From assembly GCF_017348835.2 (NCBI RefSeq), contig NZ_CP071375.1: 64,000 bases of DNA; one strand, 5' to 3'. Both the position numbers and the translations under genes were made by a program. The notes below the pieces were generated by a model. It ran no database searches, had not been told where the DNA came from, and saw only the letters and a list, made by a program, of their open reading frames with translations. This stretch comes from Escherichia coli (GTDB lineage: Bacteria > Pseudomonadota > Gammaproteobacteria > Enterobacterales > Enterobacteriaceae). How positions within the stretch are numbered: the stretch's first letter is position 1; each line of letters opens with the position of its first letter. Positions 20,372 through 30,399 of this stretch are shown in pieces.

Positions 20372-21064
20372 TTAATTATGTCTCTTAAGGGTTTGCGACT
20401 GACTGATTAAGACCTTTCCAAAGACCATGAATCGGTGTTCGTTTTCGCTAGTAATTCCCCATTCACGGTAAATCTGGTTATCAGAAATCACCAGCAGTTT
20501 GTCAGGAATCATTTGAAGTCTTTTAACGTATATTTTGTCATCAAAACCAAAGACATATATACCATCACCATCAAACTGATTGATGCTGACATCAACGAAG
20601 ATGAGATCTCCTGGCTCAATGGTTGGACACATACTGTCCCCACGAACGTTGATAACTTTGATGTGATTGGCTGGTCGTCCGCCGAACATTGATACAGCAT
20701 TATCAGTTCTGTATTCGATGGCATGAATCACATCAATGACATCACCGCCCTGGATAAGGCCATTTCCCGCACTGGCACTGATATCCAGCATTTCAATACG
20801 GAACACATCCTTCACCTGCGCAACATCCTCATTATTACTGTTTTTATATACAGTATTACTTTTGTGGGCAGAGGTAAAGAGATCAGCAATATCAACACCT
20901 AAGCTCTTGGCAATATTACTCAGTGTTTGTTCGGTAAATTGTTTTTGCTTACCCGTTTCTAAGCGCGAGATGTTCGCCGCATCTACTCCTATTGCTTCAG
21001 CGAGATCGGCGATTTTCATGTTCTTCGCTTGGCGAAGTTGTCTGACTCGGTTTCCTATGTTCAT
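20372..21064 (-). CDS. cI: CI-like phage repressor (HTH_XRE plus S24 LexA-like peptidase domain)
   Basis: 230-aa; N-terminal HTH (RVRQLRQAKNMKIADLAEAIGVDAANISRLETGK), C-terminal GDSM serine and VKR lysine; divergent from a cro-like gene. Confidence 0.85.
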   Translation of the reverse strand: MNIGNRVRQLRQAKNMKIADLAEAIGVDAANISRLETGKQKQFTEQTLSNIAKSLGVDIADLFTSAHKSNTVYKNSNNEDVAQVKDVFRIEMLDISASAGNGLIQGGDVIDVIHAIEYRTDNAVSMFGGRPANHIKVINVRGDSMCPTIEPGDLIFVDVSINQFDGDGIYVFGFDDKIYVKRLQMIPDKLLVISDNQIYREWGITSENEHRFMVFGKVLISQSQTLKRHN

Positions 21065-21161: not shown

Positions 21162-21422
21162 ATGCAATCACCATTACGAAATGTGCGTAAGGCGCATGGT
21201 TTCACTTTGCAGCATGTTGCTGCGGGTGTTCAAGTCAATCCAGCGACGTTGAGTCGTATTGAGAGGCTGGAGCAGATTCCATCTATCGAGCTTGCAGAAC
21301 GTTTAGCCAATTTTTTTAAGGGTGAAGTCAGCGAAATGCAGATTCTTTATCCGGCACGTTTTCAATCTAGCCAAAACCAGAATGGGTTTAAACCACAGGA
21401 ACAGGAGGTGAACCGTGGGTAA
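21162..21422 (+). CDS. cro: Cro-like HTH regulator
   Basis: 86-aa HTH_XRE protein (FTLQHVAAGVQVNPATLSRIER) divergent from cI. Confidence 0.75.
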   Translation: MQSPLRNVRKAHGFTLQHVAAGVQVNPATLSRIERLEQIPSIELAERLANFFKGEVSEMQILYPARFQSSQNQNGFKPQEQEVNRG

Positions 21423-21966
21423 GCATCACTGGAAAGTAGAAAAACAGCCTGAGTGTTACGTGAAAGCTGTCAGAAAAACTATCGCAGCGTTGCCGGGGGG
21501 GTACGCTGAAGCTGCTGACTGGCTGGATGTAACAGAGAACGCATTATTTAACCGCCTTCGTGCCGATGGCGATCAGATTTTCCCGCTGGGATGGGCAATG
21601 ATTTTGCAACGTGCTGGTGGAACTCACTTCATTGCTGACGCTGTGGCGCAGTCTGCAAATGGCGTCTTTGTGTCTCTTCCTGATGTCGAGGATGTGGACA
21701 ACGCCGATATCAACCAACGCCTGCTGGAAGTCATTGAACAGATCGGCAGTTATTCAAAACAGATTCGTTCAGCAATTGAAGACGGTGTAGTGGAACCGCA
21801 TGAGAAGACAGCAATTAACGATGAGCTGTACCTCTCAATTTCGAAGCTGCAGGAGCATGCAGCACTGGTCTACAAAATCTTTTGCGTTTCAGAAAGTAGT
21901 GACGCCCGCGAGTGTGCAGCTCCGGGCGCCGTGGCGTGTCGTGACTGTGGAGAAACTAACGCATGA
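21415..21966 (+). CDS. phage regulatory protein, possibly CII (CP76)-like
   Basis: 183-aa ORF directly after cro with overlapping start; family assignment from position and recalled similarity only. Confidence 0.4.
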
Positions 21967-22301
21967 ACAGTTTAACAACACACTACCGTCGCTCGCAACT
22001 GATTGCGCTTCCTGTACCGGGTGGAAAAGCGAAGGTGGAGTATTGCTATGCAGTAAATGTACCAGGTGACAGGGAAATTGTAACCCACAGCTTTGCAGAG
22101 TGGGCTGTGGGTGATTTCAACCGGCAGAAGGAGACAGTCCTTTGCGACAAGTTAACCGCTGGTTCAAAGATCACTACGGAGTGCCCGTCAGAGTCATTCG
22201 TTGGGAGCCGGAAACACAACGGGTTATCTACCTCCGTGAAGGCTATGAGCATGAGTGCTTCAGCCCGCTCGAACAGTTTCGTCGTAAATTCAGGGAAATA
22301 G
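21963..22301 (+). CDS. hypothetical ORF in a region with three overlapping protein-like frames
   Basis: ATGA coupling to upstream gene; C-terminal half looks non-coding while frame +2 carries protein-like sequence with no ATG; see findings. Confidence 0.3.
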
Positions 22302-22310
22302 AGGTCGGTC

Positions 22311-23252
22311 ATGAGCACTAAATTAACCGGCTATGTATGGGATGGTTGCGCTGCGTCAGGCATGAAATTATCCAGCGTGGCAATTATGGCCCGCCTGGCT
22401 GATTTCAGTAATGACGAAGGTGTGTGCTGGCCATCAATTGAAACCATTGCCCGTCAGATTGGCGCGGGGATGAGTACCGTCAGAACGGCTATCGCACGGC
22501 TGGAAGCAGAAGGCTGGTTAACGCGTAAGGCGCGTCGCCAGGGTAACCGCAATGCGTCGAATGTTTATCAGCTTAACGTTGCGAAGCTTCAGGCAGCGGC
22601 ATTTTCTCAACTGTCAGATTCTGACCCGTCAAAATCTGACGCATCAAAATCTGACCCGTCAAAATTTGATGCGTCGAAATCTGGCAAAAAAGCGGGTTTT
22701 CACCCGTCAGAATCTGGCGGGGATCCGTCAGTAAAATCAAAACATGATCCGTCAGATAAAAAAACTTCTCGTCCGGACGCTTCGCAACCGGACACGCAGA
22801 AGGCTGAACAGGAGTTTTTAACTCGCCATCCTGATGCGGTTGTATTCAGCCCTAAAAAGCGCCAGTGGGGAACGCAGGATGATTTGACCTGCGCACAGTG
22901 GCTCTGGAAAAAAATCATCGCCCTGTACGAGCAGGCCGCCGAATGTGACGGCGAGGTGGTTCGTCCCAAAGAACCGAACTGGACAGCCTGGGCAAACGAA
23001 ATTCGCCTGATGTGTGTGCAGGATGGTCGTACTCACAAACAAATCTGCGAGATGTACAGCCGCGTCAGCCGCGATCCGTTCTGGTGCCGTAACGTGCTCA
23101 GCCCGTCGAAGCTGCGGGAAAAATGGGATGAGCTTTCCCTGCGCTTATCGCCGTCCGTCAGCACGTACACCGAAAAACGCGAAGACCCGTACTTCAAAGC
23201 CAGTTACGACAACGTGGACTACAGCCAGATCCCGGCAGGATTCAGGGGGTGA
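22311..23252 (+). CDS. phage replication initiator (O-like, N-terminal HTH)
   Basis: 313-aa; N-terminal winged-helix/HTH_36-like region (MSTVRTAIARLEAEGWL), internal iteron-encoded linker; follows cro/cII. Confidence 0.7.
   Translation: MSTKLTGYVWDGCAASGMKLSSVAIMARLADFSNDEGVCWPSIETIARQIGAGMSTVRTAIARLEAEGWLTRKARRQGNRNASNVYQLNVAKLQAAAFSQLSDSDPSKSDASKSDPSKFDASKSGKKAGFHPSESGGDPSVKSKHDPSDKKTSRPDASQPDTQKAEQEFLTRHPDAVVFSPKKRQWGTQDDLTCAQWLWKKIIALYEQAAECDGEVVRPKEPNWTAWANEIRLMCVQDGRTHKQICEMYSRVSRDPFWCRNVLSPSKLREKWDELSLRLSPSVSTYTEKREDPYFKASYDNVDYSQIPAGFRG
22606..22760. repeat. iteron-like direct repeats inside the replication gene (candidate ori)
   Basis: Four tandem 15-nt units tgacccgtcaaaatc / tgacgcatcaaaatc / tgacccgtcaaaatt / tgatgcgtcgaaatc (22622-22681), then degenerate ccgtcag units and an A-rich tract. 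Confidence 0.5.
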
Positions 23253-23743
23253 TCATGAGTCTTTTGAATGACGTTCAGAAATTCATTGAAGCCCATCCGG
23301 GCTGTACTTCCGGAGACATTGCGGATGCTTTTGCAGGTTACTCACGGCAGCGCGTTCTGCAGTCAGCAAGCAAGTTACGTCAGAGTGGGCGTGTGGCTCA
23401 CCGTTGTGAAGGAGATACACACAGACATTTCCCGCGCCTGACTGAGAGAGCGCAGGATCCGGAACCACAACCAGTTCGTGAAACCAGACCTGTGCGCAAT
23501 TTCTATGTCGGCACTAACGACCCGCGGGTGATTTTGTGCCTGACCCGCCAGGCGGAAGAACTGGAGTCCAGGGGCTTATACCGTCGTGCTGCAACGGTGT
23601 GGATGGCGGCATTCCGTGAAAGCCACTCCCAGCAAGAGCGAAACAATTTTCTTGCGCGTCGTGAGCGGTGTTTACGGAAAAGCAGCAAGCGCGCTGTATC
23701 GGGTGAAGAGTGGTATCTGTCAGGGAATTACGTGGGGGCTTAA
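23249..23743 (+). CDS. hypothetical prophage protein with PerC-like motif
   Basis: 164-aa ORF, ATGA-coupled to the replication gene; segment EELESRGLYRRAATVWMAAF resembles PerC-family activators (recalled). Confidence 0.4.
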   Translation: MIMSLLNDVQKFIEAHPGCTSGDIADAFAGYSRQRVLQSASKLRQSGRVAHRCEGDTHRHFPRLTERAQDPEPQPVRETRPVRNFYVGTNDPRVILCLTRQAEELESRGLYRRAATVWMAAFRESHSQQERNNFLARRERCLRKSSKRAVSGEEWYLSGNYVGA

Positions 23744-24069
23744 TGACGACGTTAACTCAATGCCAGCAGCAGGTGCTGGATATGCTGATTTCTTACCAGA
23801 AAGAACGTGGCTTCCCGCCAACCAATCAGGAGGTGGCTACCATGCTGGGATACCGTTCAGTGAATGCAGCGGTGGAGCATCTTCGCGCACTGGAGAAAAA
23901 AGGCGTCATCACGATAAAGCGTGGCGTGGCCCGGGGCATCACGCTTCATACCGCGGTGAAGGACGACGACAGCGAGGTGGCCGGGATTATCCGCGCACTG
24001 CTTGCTGGTGAGGAAAACGCCAGGCTGCGTGCAACCCACTGGTTACATGAGAGGGGCCTGAAAGTATGA
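23743..24069 (+). CDS. LexA N-terminal DNA-binding-domain-like protein (no peptidase domain)
   Basis: 108-aa product from ATG 23743; winged-helix similarity to LexA DBD (LTQCQQQVLDMLISYQKERGFPPTNQEVATMLGYRSVNAAVEHLRALEKKGVI). Confidence 0.55.
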   Translation: MTTLTQCQQQVLDMLISYQKERGFPPTNQEVATMLGYRSVNAAVEHLRALEKKGVITIKRGVARGITLHTAVKDDDSEVAGIIRALLAGEENARLRATHWLHERGLKV

Positions 24070-24455
24070 AGCTGATCCTGCCTTTTCCGCCCAGCGTGAA
24101 CACGTACTGGCGACACCCCAACAAAGGGGCGTTTGCTGGTAAGAGCCTGATAAGCGCGGCGGGGCGAAAATTCCAGAGCGCGGCGTGCGCAGCAATAGTT
24201 GAGCAGTTACGTCGTCTGCCGAAACCAACGTCGGCACCTGCTTCAGTGGAGATCGTGTTGTTTCCTCCGGATAACAGGATCCGCGATCTGGACAACTATA
24301 ACAAGGCGCTGTTTGACGCCCTGACCCACGCGGGGGTGTGGGAAGACGACAGTCAGGTGAAAAGAATGCTGGTGGAGTGGGGACCGGTTATCCCGGAAGG
24401 GAAGGTCGAGATCACTATCAGTAAGTACGAGAAAACGGCGGGTGCAGCTGCCTGA
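24066..24455 (+). CDS. rusA: RusA-family Holliday junction resolvase
   Basis: 129-aa; RusA motifs including DLDN and acidic catalytic residues. Confidence 0.8.
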   Translation: MKLILPFPPSVNTYWRHPNKGAFAGKSLISAAGRKFQSAACAAIVEQLRRLPKPTSAPASVEIVLFPPDNRIRDLDNYNKALFDALTHAGVWEDDSQVKRMLVEWGPVIPEGKVEITISKYEKTAGAAA

Positions 24456-24474: not shown

Positions 24475-25284
24475 ATGAATAATCTGATGGTCATTGATGG
24501 TATTGAAGTTCGTCGTGATGCTTATGGGCGTTACAGCCTGAACGATCTGCATCGCGCAGCAGTAGCATCTGGTGCAAATGCCAGAACCAAGGAGCCAGGA
24601 AAGTTTCTTTCCAGCCAACAAACTGTTGAGCTTGTTCATGAATTAACCAACACCCAGAATTTGGGTGTTGACCCGGTGAGTGTGATTCATGGGGGAAATG
24701 AACGGGGAACGTATGTCTGTAAGGAACTGGTGTATGCCTATGCAATGTGGATCAGCCCGTCATTCCATCTGAAGGTGATCCGTACTTTCGATATGGTAAC
24801 CAGCGCGCCGGAAAAGTTATCCGGACAGGTTGCTGACAAGATGCAGGCTGGCGTGATTCTGCTGGACTTTATGCGCCGGGAGTTAAATCTGTCTAACTCA
24901 TCTGTGCTTGGGGCCTGTCAGAAACTCCAGGAGGCTGTTGGCTTACCGAATCTGGCACCGCGCTATGCCATTGATGCACCTGCTGACGCGCCTGATGGCT
25001 CAAGCCGCCCGACGCTGTCGCTGAGTGCACTGCTGAAGCAGTATGGTATCCGCCTGACGGCTAATCAGGCATATCACCAGATGGCGAAGCTGGGGATCGT
25101 TGAACAACGCGAACGATACAGCCGTACCGCGATTAACAACATCAAAAAATTCTGGTCGCTGACAGCGAAAGGTTGCATGTTCGGCAAGAACATCACCAGT
25201 CCCGCAAATCCGCGCGAGACGCAGCCGCATTTCTTCGAATCCCGATTCCCTGAGCTGTTAAAGCTGCTCGATACCGTTCATTGA
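24475..25284 (+). CDS. KilA-N domain protein (antirepressor-like)
   Basis: 269-aa from ATG 24475 with RBS aggag; N-terminal KilA-N/APSES-like domain. Confidence 0.65.
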   Translation: MNNLMVIDGIEVRRDAYGRYSLNDLHRAAVASGANARTKEPGKFLSSQQTVELVHELTNTQNLGVDPVSVIHGGNERGTYVCKELVYAYAMWISPSFHLKVIRTFDMVTSAPEKLSGQVADKMQAGVILLDFMRRELNLSNSSVLGACQKLQEAVGLPNLAPRYAIDAPADAPDGSSRPTLSLSALLKQYGIRLTANQAYHQMAKLGIVEQRERYSRTAINNIKKFWSLTAKGCMFGKNITSPANPRETQPHFFESRFPELLKLLDTVH

Positions 25285-25285
25285 G

Positions 25286-26281
25286 GTGAACGTGAGAGCG
25301 CTACTGACCCCCGAGATTGCCCCGCGTATGGGGATCGTATTGTTCAGACCCGGTTCAGAGCTGATGCCCCTGTTTATGCAGGGGCGTGTCCTGCTGGAGC
25401 CTGAGCCGGAACGTTATTCATCTTTTGCCAGTGGTGCCGTTCCGGCTGCATCACAACCGCTGGCGGATGATCCTGCCGTTCGGGCCGTGTTCCGCAATGA
25501 GGCAGTGATCCGTCGTGCTGGTGGCGTGGAATGTCTTGAAAGCTGGTTACTTCGTGAAAAAGGCTGCCAGTGGCCTCATTCCGACTGGCACAGCGAGAAC
25601 ATGACCACAATGCGACACGCGCCGGGCGCAATCCGTCTGTGCTGGCACTGCGATAACCAACTGCGCGATCAGTTCACGGAACGGCTGGAATCAATGGCAA
25701 CGGATAACTGTGCCCGCTGGGTGTTGTCTGTTGTGCGTCGGGATCTCGGTTTTGATGACAGTCACGTTGTGACAATGCCGGAACTGTGCTGGTGGCTGAT
25801 TCGTAATGATCTGGCGGATACCTTACCGGAAAGTGCAGCCCGTAAGGCACTGAGATTACCGAAGCCTTTTGTGCCGTCTGTCACCCGGGAAAGTGACCTG
25901 GTGCCTTCGGTTCCTGCCACCAGCATCATCCAGAATAAAGCGAAAAAGGTGCTGGCGCTGAAAGTGGATCCGGAGTCGCCGGACTCTTTTATGTTACGCC
26001 CAAAACGTCGCCGCTGGGTTAATGAAAAGTACACGCGATGGGTTAAGACGCAGCCGTGCGCATGTTGTGGAAAACCTGCTGATGATCCCCACCACCTGAT
26101 AGGCCACGGTCAGGGTGGAATGGGGACAAAAGCGCATGACCTCTTTGTGTTGCCTTTGTGCAGAAAGCATCACGACGAGCTGCATGCGGATACTGTGGCA
26201 TTCGAAGAGAAGTATGGCTCCCAGCTGGAGCTGATATTTCGTTTTATCGATCGTGCGCTGGCGATTGGTGTGCTGGCCTGA
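25286..26281 (+). CDS. DUF968-like prophage protein with C-terminal Cys/His (HNH-like) cluster
   Basis: 331-aa; C-terminus [18 protein letters not shown]...CRKHHDELH. Confidence 0.55.
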
Positions 26282-26298: not shown

Positions 26299-26682
26299 AT
26301 GCGTGATATTCAGATGGTTCTTGAGCGTTGGGGAGCGTGGGCGGCTAATAATCATGAAGATGTGACTTGGTCGTCCATTGCCGCCGGTTTTAAGGGATTA
26401 ATTCCTTCAAAAGTAAAATCTCGCCCACAATGTTGTGACGATGACGCGATGATCATTTGCGGGTGCATGGCCCGTCTGAAAAAGAACAACAGCGACTTGC
26501 ACGATTTATTAGTAGATTATTATGTAGTCGGTATGACATTCATGTCACTGGCAGGTAAGCATTGCTGCTCTGATGGTTATATCGGGAAAAGGTTACAGAA
26601 GGCTGAGGGCATAATTGAAGGGATGTTAATGGCATTAGATATCCGGTTAGAGATGGATATCGTTGTTAATAACTCTAATTAA
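26299..26682 (+). CDS. quuD: late-gene antiterminator Q (DLP12 quuD-like)
   Basis: 127-aa product from ATG 26299 ([22 protein letters not shown]...); position before the lysis cassette. Confidence 0.75.
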
Positions 26683-26715: not shown

Positions 26716-26733
26716 GGGGCGTTGCAACGCCCC
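26716..26733. terminator. 18-bp perfect palindrome hairpin between Q and nmpC
   Basis: ggggcgttg/caacgcccc; T-rich tract on the minus-strand side. Confidence 0.4.
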
Positions 26734-26870: not shown

Positions 26871-27953
26871 TTAGAACTGGTAAACCATACCTACAGCAAC
26901 GATATCATCGGTAGCAACGCCAGATGCTTTCGTGAAATCGCTCTTATCAATCAGGTTGATTTTGTAATCAACAAAAGTGGACATATTTTTGTTGAAGTAA
27001 TAGGTTGCACCTACATCAATATATTCAACCAGGTCCTGATCACCCCACGCACCCAAGTCTTTTCCTTTAGATTGCAGGTAAGCAACGGACGGACGCAGAC
27101 CGAAGTCGAACTGATATTGTGCAACTACTTCGAAGTTTTGTGCTTTGTTGGCAATATGGTTATTACCAAAAACAGTCATGTTCTGGGTTTCAGAATAGGT
27201 GGTAGCCAGATAGATGTTGTTCGCATCATATTTCAGACCAGCTGCCCATACTTCAGCATTTTGACCAGATGCATTCAGGCTGTTGTTACCGTAGATAACC
27301 TGATTATTAGTGCGGTCAGATTTAGCATAGGTTGCACCTACACCGAATCCTTCATACTCATACGTAGTGGAGAAACCGAAACCATCACCATTAGCTTCAG
27401 TTACGTCAGTGCGGTCATTTTTACCCTGATACTGAGCAGCAAAGTTCAGACCATCAACCAGACCAAAGAAGTCGTTGTTACGATAAGTTGCAACACCAGT
27501 GGTGCGACCAGTCATGAACACATCTGTTTGGGTCCAGGTATCGCCACCGAATTCTGGCAGAACGTCAGTCCACGCACCGATGTCATATGCTACACCGTAG
27601 TTACGGCCGTAATCGATTGAGCCGTAGTCCCCGAATTTCAGGCCTGCAAATGCAAGACGGGTTTTGTCTTTGGAGGAGCCTTGAGATTCAGCGCGGTTGC
27701 CTTTGAATTCATATTCCCACTGACCGAAACCAGTCAGTTGATCGTTGATTTGGGTTTCACCTTTGAAGCCAAGACGGGCATAAGTAGTATCACCATCATC
27801 TGCATCATTAGAGGAGAAGTAGTGCTTGGCATTAACTTTCCCATATAGATCCAGCTTGTTACTGTCTTTATTATAAATTTCAGCTGCCTGAGCAGACATC
27901 GCCATCAGTACTGATGCGGCTACAGCAGAAATTGCCACTGTTAATTTTTTCAT
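26871..27953 (-). CDS. nmpC: outer membrane general porin (NmpC/OmpD-like), intact
   Basis: 360-aa 16-strand porin with signal peptide and C-terminal ...VGMVYQF. Confidence 0.9.
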
Positions 27954-29743: not shown

Positions 29744-30037
29744 TTATTGTGAGCAATACACACGCGCTTCCAGCGGAGTATAAATGCCTAAAGTAATAAA
29801 ACCGAGCAATCCATTTACGAATGTTTGCTGGGTTTCTGTTTTAACAACATTTTCTGCGCCGCCACAAATTTTGGCTGCATCAACAGTTTTCTCCTGTCCA
29901 ATTCCCGAAACGAAGAAGTGATGGGTGATGGTTTCCTTTGGTGTTACTGCTGTCGGTTTGTTTCCAACAGTAAACGTCTGTTGAGCACATCCTGTAATAA
30001 GCATTGCCAGAGCGGCAGAAAACAACATTTTTTTCAT
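29744..30037 (-). CDS. bor: Bor lipoprotein
   Basis: 97-aa from ATG 30035-30037 (MKKMLFSAALAMLITGC lipobox). Confidence 0.85.
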   Translation of the reverse strand: MKKMLFSAALAMLITGCAQQTFTVGNKPTAVTPKETITHHFFVSGIGQEKTVDAAKICGGAENVVKTETQQTFVNGLLGFITLGIYTPLEARVYCSQ

Positions 30038-30399
30038 CTTATTATCCTGCATTGTTAAAAACGGCAGAATCCTATGTGACAACAATTAAACGATAATTAA
30101 ATGGATTGATGAAAATTAAAACTATATAGGTGTACGCTCAGACTATTGGAGGAAGTTGGGGACACTCAGAATCCTGTGGAATGAAATAAACCGGTCTATC
30201 CGTCTATTACCCTTTTAGCTGCGCTGTATCGTCGCCGTATTCCCGCATTAACCATGACCGTAGCCCGACGGGGAATTCCTTCTGCGTGAGTGTGCGGGAA
30301 TAATCAAAAACGATGCACACCGGGTTTTACTGTGCTGACAGACGCAGGGTTACCCTCATAGTCGCTTTTCCGGTGCGATGGTGGAAGAAACCGGGATGT

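Follow-up and report, generated by a model that had tools for sequence, protein, structure and literature searches.

A 64,000-nucleotide stretch of Escherichia coli DNA (contig NZ_CP071375.1 of assembly GCF_017348835.2; hereafter the window) represents an E. coli lambdoid prophage in which the genes for a KilA-N protein and a DUF968/YdfU-family protein lie side by side just upstream of the late antiterminator gene Q; the stretch is 100% identical to the chromosome of E. coli 05-3629 (NZ_CP027373). Our analysis indicates that the two are probably ordinary delayed-early genes, the DUF968 protein serving as a phage recombination/replication nuclease and the KilA-N protein as a DNA-binding regulator. 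We regard the family and fold identity of both as close to certain, and an active nuclease function of the DUF968 protein in phage recombination/replication as roughly an even bet. The pair is not an obligate two-gene system. Both gene families are already known, are annotated in RefSeq, and are very common. A first reading of the DNA letters (the original prediction) had placed two plus-strand open reading frames (ORFs) of 269 and 331 residues between rusA and Q and had called a KilA-N domain and a DUF968/HNH-type domain, the latter with a C-terminal CxxCG..HH..H..C..HH..H motif. All of this was confirmed: the ORFs lie where they had been placed, the gene order agrees with the NCBI Prokaryotic Genome Annotation Pipeline (PGAP), the domain calls agree with Pfam and PHROG, and the motif is present exactly.

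The downstream gene was assigned to DUF968 on a hidden Markov model (HMM) match, colinearity with YdfU, and a prophage context near RusA and Q. Pfam DUF968 (PF06147) matched residues 162–328 of the 331-residue form (E = 3.6e-80; model positions 2–171 of 171), PHROG 96, “HNH endonuclease,” matched over the full length (E = 5.5e-176), and BLASTP against K-12 YdfU gave 57% identity over 329/349 residues (E = 1e-146). An exhaustive representative search recovered 3079 DUF968 relatives, with full-length homologues at 26–50% identity in Enterobacterales, Pasteurellaceae, and Vibrionaceae. NCBIfam returned no matches for either the KilA-N or the DUF968 protein, and a fold search of AFDB50 with the DUF968 protein recovered other DUF968 proteins only, with no new context for its N-terminal domain. 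The HNH classification of DUF968 is not new, since a nuclease-like function had been predicted for DUF1364 (Kaur & Subramanian 2016, PMC4999995), and DUF968 and DUF1364 (YdfU, YbcO) had been placed in group 7 of the His-Me finger nucleases, with RusA, Q, and antirepressor as typical neighbors and a proposed role in recombination (Jablonska et al. 2017, PMC5714182).

The C-terminal ∼80 residues of the DUF968 protein display a complete His-Me finger (HNH) core with the beta-beta-alpha-metal fold, a catalytic histidine, and CxxC...CxxH zinc ligands. Residues are numbered here according to the 329-residue form, and conservation was read from an alignment of 34 homologues with 24–85% identity. Among the zinc ligands, C256 is invariant (34/34), C259 and C290 are found in 27/34 and 29/34 homologues, respectively, and position 293 is Cys or His in 27/34. 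In the active site, D283 is likewise invariant (34/34), H268 is present in 31/34, and H267, H294, and H298 are each present in 30/34. The conservation of these residues across the 34 homologues indicates that the nuclease core is intact and under selection, and a metal-dependent nuclease activity is predicted for the protein.

Profile-profile comparison with hhalign placed the DUF968 protein nearest to Gp16 of the Staphylococcus phage ΦNM1 (95% probability, E = 2.5e-8), its closest experimentally characterized relative by this measure, followed by Ref of phage P1 (82%, E = 1e-5) and YbcO (81%, E = 1.2e-5, trailing helices included). The relationship to Gp16 is visible in both directions in Pfam, where Gp16 matched DUF968 (E = 1.6e-6) and the DUF968 protein matched HNHc_6, the family of Gp16 (E = 7.2e-6). 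Furthermore, the residues mutated in Gp16 all have conserved counterparts: the zinc ligands C148, C181, and H184 align to C259, C290, and H293, and the nuclease-center residues H157, H185, and H189 align to H268, H294, and H298. By fold comparison, Ref and YbcO are the nearest structures, rather than proteins of the gp74 type.

Gp16 (HNHc_6, PF16784) is an early protein that nicks DNA in vitro and interacts with RecA; when it is deleted, replication of the phage DNA is impaired, and its over-expression is toxic (PMC12817073, 2026). The gp16 gene is an early gene near those for SSB, replication proteins, and RusA, but it comes from a different host phylum and a different operon layout, its product has a NinB/Orf-like N-terminal domain that is absent here, and the DUF968 protein covers only positions 123–184 of the 204-position HNHc_6 model. 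Ref (PDB 3plw) is a RecA-dependent nickase acting at D-loops. It carries a disordered basic N-terminus of 76 residues that is needed for its RecA-dependent activity (PMC4330346), whereas the DUF968 protein has a folded, zinc-binding N-terminal domain of ∼190 residues. The DUF968 protein also falls outside the Pfam family of Ref (RecA_dep_nuc, PF16786), and ref is expressed in P1 from its own C1-controlled promoter, while the DUF968 gene has no promoter of its own. YbcO (DLP12/phage 82; DUF1364, PDB 3g27), whose function is predicted, has 96 residues, lacks the N-terminal domain, and is encoded upstream rather than downstream of rusA. K-12 YdfU, from the Qin prophage, shares the two-domain architecture, is ∼95% identical in its C-terminal third, and is encoded directly upstream of a Q-like antiterminator gene (ydfT), as the DUF968 gene here is upstream of quuD; its N-terminal two thirds, however, are a diverged allele with a linker insertion of ∼20 residues, and Qin has lost rusA and carries no KilA-N gene upstream. 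NinG/Rap is a His-Me finger nuclease of the nin region as well, encoded shortly before Q and acting on branched recombination intermediates, but it belongs to a different family: the DUF968 protein has no match to Pfam NinG (PF05766), and hhalign gave 8% probability over 13 columns at the CxxC turn. In phages that carry RusA, it is RusA, not DUF968, that is seen as the functional counterpart of Rap.

The N-terminal ∼190 residues of the DUF968 protein match no Pfam family. In the AlphaFold2 model this region is folded (predicted local distance difference test score 79–96) and is not a basic tail. To judge from its conserved columns, it holds a second, previously unremarked metal-type site with four putative ligands (C92, H/C100, C117, and H/C120), which the original prediction had missed. 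Cys occupies column 92 in 33/34 homologues, column 100 is evenly split between His and Cys (17 each), C117 is invariant (34/34), and column 120 has His in 23 homologues and Cys in the remaining 11. W118, D121, and N139 are likewise conserved. The model places strands at residues 104–109 and 112–117 and a helix at 118–124. The core of this domain and the C-terminal HNH core share a colinear W..C..H..LCxH pattern, which hhalign scored at E = 0.02–0.03 with a probability of 2%; statistical support for a duplication is thus lacking, and a degenerate duplication is only weakly hinted at. A NinB/Orf-like N-terminal domain, described for Gram-positive “DUF968” proteins (PMC4118853), was considered and rejected (0.2% probability by hhalign against lambda Orf or YbcN).

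The upstream gene encodes a member of the KilA-N family (PF04383), with a significant Pfam match at residues 7–109 (E = 3.5e-22) and an APSES-like fold; over its full length the protein matches PHROG 129, “transcriptional regulator” (E = 7.8e-124). Outside the KilA-N domain, Pfam gave no match, the C-terminal domain included. This small C-terminal domain, joined to the KilA-N domain by a linker, was seen only fused behind KilA-N (394 matches, Enterobacterales), looks winged-helix-like in predicted secondary structure, and had no convincing match when compared with the PDB. The protein has no Pfam match to the ANT/KilAC/Rha families (PF03374, PF09669), and its PHROG anti-repressor match is confined to the KilA-N domain and reaches only E = 0.0013. 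The gene is itself a mosaic, with a joint between 24475–24801 and 24817–25281 (loci L016–L095): the DNA-binding half occurs as alleles of 100, 81, 69, and 53% identity, while the C-terminal domain and the DUF968 protein stay 97–99% identical. The swap of this half suggests that DNA-recognition specificity has been exchanged, possibly for phage-specific sites, and the KilA-N protein is most likely a sequence-specific DNA binder that would serve as a phage regulator.

The arrangement of the locus is that of a single run of genes. The spacings are 19 nucleotides between rusA and the KilA-N gene, 7 between the KilA-N and DUF968 genes, and 17 between the DUF968 gene and quuD, and a signal scan of the locus found no promoter and no convincing terminator-like signal that would set the pair apart. 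Its G+C fraction (0.50–0.58) resembles that of the flanking replication and rusA genes, compared with 0.33–0.47 for the porin moron after Q. The KilA-N gene starts at an ATG preceded by GAGGAG. For the DUF968 gene, RefSeq/PGAP use the GTG at 25292 (329 residues), and an alternative GTG at 25286 gives the 331-residue form. A GAGGTG Shine-Dalgarno sequence overlaps the KilA-N stop codon; since the GTG at 25292 lies five bases behind it, and the GTG at 25286 lies inside it, the former is the better-placed start. The original prediction had taken the two genes to be inserted and had implied an accessory or defense role. This did not stand, given the missing promoter, the neighbor-like G+C fraction, and the co-travel of the whole block described below.

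We counted both genes in 5426 complete E. coli genomes, scoring KilA-N at a coverage of at least 80%. The KilA-N gene was present in 2113/5426 genomes, this DUF968 allele in 2362/5426, any DUF968 match in 3712/5426, and the adjacent pair in 2115/5426. The pair is also found in isolated or induced phages (mEp460, vB_EcoM-720R4, Stx2c-converting phages, and Salmonella ST64B). In ST64B (sb47/sb48; L004, 4405–5359) the annotation splits the DUF968 homologue into two overlapping coding sequences, an “HNH endonuclease” and a “DUF968 domain-containing protein,” which reflects either a frameshift or an error in the reference sequence.

To follow the gene order, we compared 80 viral contigs with 97–99%-identical DUF968 genes, a sample suited to mosaic joints rather than to deep co-occurrence. 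Most of these contigs carry a whole block of LexA-like, RusA, KilA-N, and DUF968 genes. Several full-length loci (L056, L068, L073, L074, and L086) lack LexA-like, RusA, and KilA-N genes altogether; in L073 and L056 the order is DnaC-like loader, DnaB-like helicase, an 85-residue ORF, DUF968, and then Q, and the Stx2d phage Stx2_112808 has the same DnaC-DnaB-ORF-DUF968-Q layout. These block-free loci indicate that DUF968 functions in the absence of both KilA-N and RusA and is the gene retained in a minimal nin region; in some Stx2-type phages it is almost the only gene left between the DnaB-like helicase and Q. On the other side of the gene, Q is 100, 86, 62, or ∼47% identical or belongs to another family. 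More distant homologues (34–46% identity) occupy the same slot in other Gammaproteobacteria. Upstream of them we found a Rha+ANT protein gene with a 4-nucleotide overlap (L005), an ANT protein gene and a 114-residue ORF (L006/L007), or neither Rha/ANT nor KilA-N (L008, L009, and L011); downstream are Q genes from different families, a gene for a VRR_NUC nuclease, or small ORFs. The ANT/Rha proteins are not homologous to the KilA-N protein (hhalign probability <0.5%), and a conserved upstream partner in these loci was rejected. The variety of upstream genes indicates that the slot draws antirepressor-class DNA-binding genes without a conserved partner. The co-occurrence across prophages that the original prediction had proposed to check is near-absolute within E. 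coli as seen from the KilA-N side, but DUF968 stands without KilA-N in Stx2-type phages and distant loci; the E. coli linkage (2113 versus 2115 genomes) arises from one inherited module.

Fused KilA-N::DUF968 ORFs (P0043, P0062, P0010, P0351, and P0058) were also found. We rejected them as Rosetta-stone evidence, as they result from in-frame deletion, with no fewer than four distinct joints among them. The joint ...KGCMFG|NEAVIRR... is common to P0043 and P0062, although the two have different KilA-N alleles. These ORFs look like recurrent deletion in decaying prophages.

Since Gp16 and Ref provide precedents, and given the operon context, we propose a lytic-cycle role in DNA metabolism. On induction, the delayed-early transcript would yield the YdfU-type protein together with the replication and nin genes. 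Its N-terminal zinc domain may direct the protein to a structure or partner, such as a D-loop, a RecA filament, a fork, or SSB. There the zinc-stabilized ββα-metal site would nick DNA, with H268 as the putative general base and D283, H294, and H298 as putative metal holders, as judged from the motif alignment. Recombination or replication intermediates (D-loops, RecA-bound or branched DNA) would be cut or nicked, and the nicks would feed recombination-dependent replication, with RusA taking part in their resolution. The protein may in addition act on the host, as Gp16 does. In our assessment, the DUF968 protein most likely serves as a recombination/replication nuclease of the lytic cycle, with a DNA-binding regulator encoded beside it. 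The original prediction had named a confident assignment to known non-defense phage functions, such as antirepressor or NinG-like proteins, as grounds against it; for the DUF968 protein this largely came about, through the phage HNH nucleases Ref, YbcO, and Gp16 rather than NinG, but not for the KilA-N protein, which gave no antirepressor match.

Several observations weigh against this assignment. The Pfam family of Ref, RecA_dep_nuc, was matched at only E = 0.44, and HMMER searches of the PDB, with the single protein and with a profile, returned nothing significant, so the link to Ref and YbcO comes from fold and profile-profile comparison only. In a few family members the HH pair or the set of zinc ligands has been lost, and some DUF968 proteins may therefore act without catalysis. 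RecA dependence is not transferable, because the N-terminal domain is unlike both the disordered basic tail of Ref and the NinB-like domain of Gp16. The nuclease role of the Gram-negative YdfU type is a predicted one, and we infer the regulatory role of the KilA-N protein from sequence.

Among the alternatives, it is unlikely, if worth consideration, that the DUF968 protein acts mainly as a nuclease whose target is the host chromosome, which it would attack or stall (host shut-off). When Gp16 is over-expressed, growth is inhibited, the nucleoid becomes condensed, and replication of the host is suppressed (PMC12817073); the DUF968 protein has the homologous HNH core intact, and P1 Ref raises killing by ciprofloxacin (PMC4713147). 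The effects of Gp16, however, are tied to RecA and to its NinB-like N-terminal domain, which is absent here, and cryptic prophages have kept the DUF968 gene in their thousands, where leaky expression of a strongly toxic protein would be costly. Such an activity, at the same low likelihood, is compatible with a recombination/replication nuclease and does not exclude it. We consider it doubtful that the YdfU type represents a new class of nickase directed at recombination intermediates, in which a degenerate, duplicated treble-clef zinc module (C92, H/C100, C117, H/C120) would replace the NinB-like domain of Gp16 or the basic tail of Ref as the targeting device and the conserved four-gene block of LexA mimic, RusA, KilA-N, and DUF968 would manipulate the RecA/SOS system of the host in favor of phage replication. 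The LexA-family gene at the head of the block encodes a 108-residue protein that is 51% identical to residues 1–68 of E. coli LexA, without the cleavage site or protease domain; such a protein would be an uncleavable LexA mimic and might weaken or reroute the SOS response in lytic growth.

A defense or superinfection-exclusion pair, in which the KilA-N protein would detect the DNA of an infecting phage and the HNH protein would destroy it, is very unlikely, and we hold with high confidence that the two genes are not a defense pair. A KilA-N-like domain does occur in the abortive-infection protein BstA (bioRxiv 10.1101/2020.07.13.199331), a PADLOC search weakly matched the KilA-N domain to the candidate family PDC-S22 (37 residues, E = 1.6e-5), HNH domains are effectors in Cap5 and McrA, and in E. 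coli the KilA-N allele virtually always adjoins the DUF968 allele. Against this, PADLOC-DB 2.0 had no match for DUF968 and the pair was recognized as neither a known nor a candidate defense system; the pair resides in a lytic early operon without its own promoter and not beside the repressor, where BstA lies; and the same DUF968 allele occurs without KilA-N in Stx2-type phages, with the upstream genes in distant loci unrelated or absent. BstA of prophage BTP1 is, like the KilA-N protein, prophage-encoded, of similar size (∼300 residues), and built of two domains with the KilA-N-like DNA-binding domain at the N-terminus, but its gene follows cI and is active in lysogens, whereas the KilA-N gene belongs to the lytic nin region, with 3.4 kb between it and the repressor. 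An identity with BstA was rejected, with no PADLOC BstA match (BTP1 BstA itself scores 1.9e-124) and 2% probability by hhalign.

We give equally little credence to a non-catalytic zinc-finger protein that binds DNA or RNA and, for example, modulates late transcription beside Q. The DUF968 gene directly precedes Q, of whichever type, the protein has two treble-clef-like zinc sites, and some homologues lack the HH pair; however, the full catalytic set (H267/H268, D283, H294, H298) is retained in 30–34 of the 34 homologues, which is more than zinc binding would require, the nearest relatives have nuclease activity, and at some distant loci a VRR_NUC gene or small ORFs follow DUF968 in place of Q. 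An HNH protein aiding terminase at cos, like HK97 gp74, is extremely improbable: HNH proteins can be terminase cofactors, as cited in PMC12817073, but here Q, the gene for a porin, and all of the lysis cassette lie between the DUF968 gene and the terminase genes, which are annotated nohD/large terminase of the lambda kind. To our knowledge, a terminase of that kind needs no HNH partner.

Coordinates of all features are compiled in the table below. Between Q and the lysis cassette lies an intact gene for a 360-residue OmpC/NmpC-like porin, with flanks of low G+C fraction (0.33–0.47) and a bidirectional hairpin at ∼26716–26733. It is a classic moron, disrupted by IS5 in the K-12 prophage DLP12 and intact in this prophage. 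On the contig of a distant lambdoid prophage (L005, 5668–7199), genes for a Ser/Thr protein kinase and a PP2C phosphatase lie between Q and holin, the place that the porin moron occupies here. An Iss/Bor-type serum-resistance lipoprotein gene (29744–30085, minus strand) is found 3′ of the lysis genes. The cI-like repressor gene contains a perfect SOS-box-like palindrome, CTGTTTTTATATACAG, at 20838–20853; a scan of the 64 kb for CTGT-N8-ACAG found 2 sites versus 0.87 expected, which is not significant.

Table. Genes and protein features of the locus (positions in the window).
Feature	Coordinates	Strand	Source
cI-like repressor	20372–21064	−	PGAP/ORF
cro-like	21162–21422	+	PGAP/ORF
ymfL	21415–21966	+	PGAP/ORF
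DUF4222 protein	22142–22321	+	PGAP/ORF
Replication HTH (helix-turn-helix) protein	22311–23252	+	PGAP/ORF
PerC-family yfdN	23249–23743	+	PGAP/ORF
Small LexA-family protein (LexA DNA-binding domain only); first gene of conserved block	23743–24069	+	
rusA; block member upstream of the pair	24066–24455	+	PGAP
KilA-N protein gene, 269 residues, WP_052892388.1	24475–25284	+	ORF; PGAP in E. coli 05-3629
KilA-N/APSES-like DNA-binding domain, residues 7–109	24493–24801	+	
C-terminal alpha/beta domain of KilA-N protein, residues ∼180–268	25012–25278	+	
DUF968/YdfU-family gene, 329 residues, WP_071830202.1	25292–26281	+	ORF, PGAP start, ribosome-binding site
Zinc-type site of N-terminal domain, C92-x7-H100-x16-C117-W-H-C120 (beta-hairpin + helix)	25565–25651	+	
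Pfam DUF968 match	25769–26269	+	
His-Me finger (HNH) core: zinc ligands C256, C259, C290, H293; active-site H267/H268, D283, H294, H298	26039–26185	+	
quuD, late antiterminator Q; mosaic boundary 3′ of DUF968	26299–26682	+	PGAP
ompC-like porin; lysis genes come after	26871–27953	−	

These results change the annotation of the locus little, because RefSeq already carries the family names. As the KilA-N/DUF968 association is a linkage by descent, the pair should not be counted as a defense candidate. What is new is the undescribed, putatively zinc-binding N-terminal domain of the DUF968 protein, which lies outside any Pfam model. In addition, a protein encoded in about 40–70% of complete E. coli genomes, K-12 YdfU included, is now tied to Gp16, which was characterized in 2026, and this tie, with every functional residue conserved, supplies a concrete hypothesis for the function of a y-gene.

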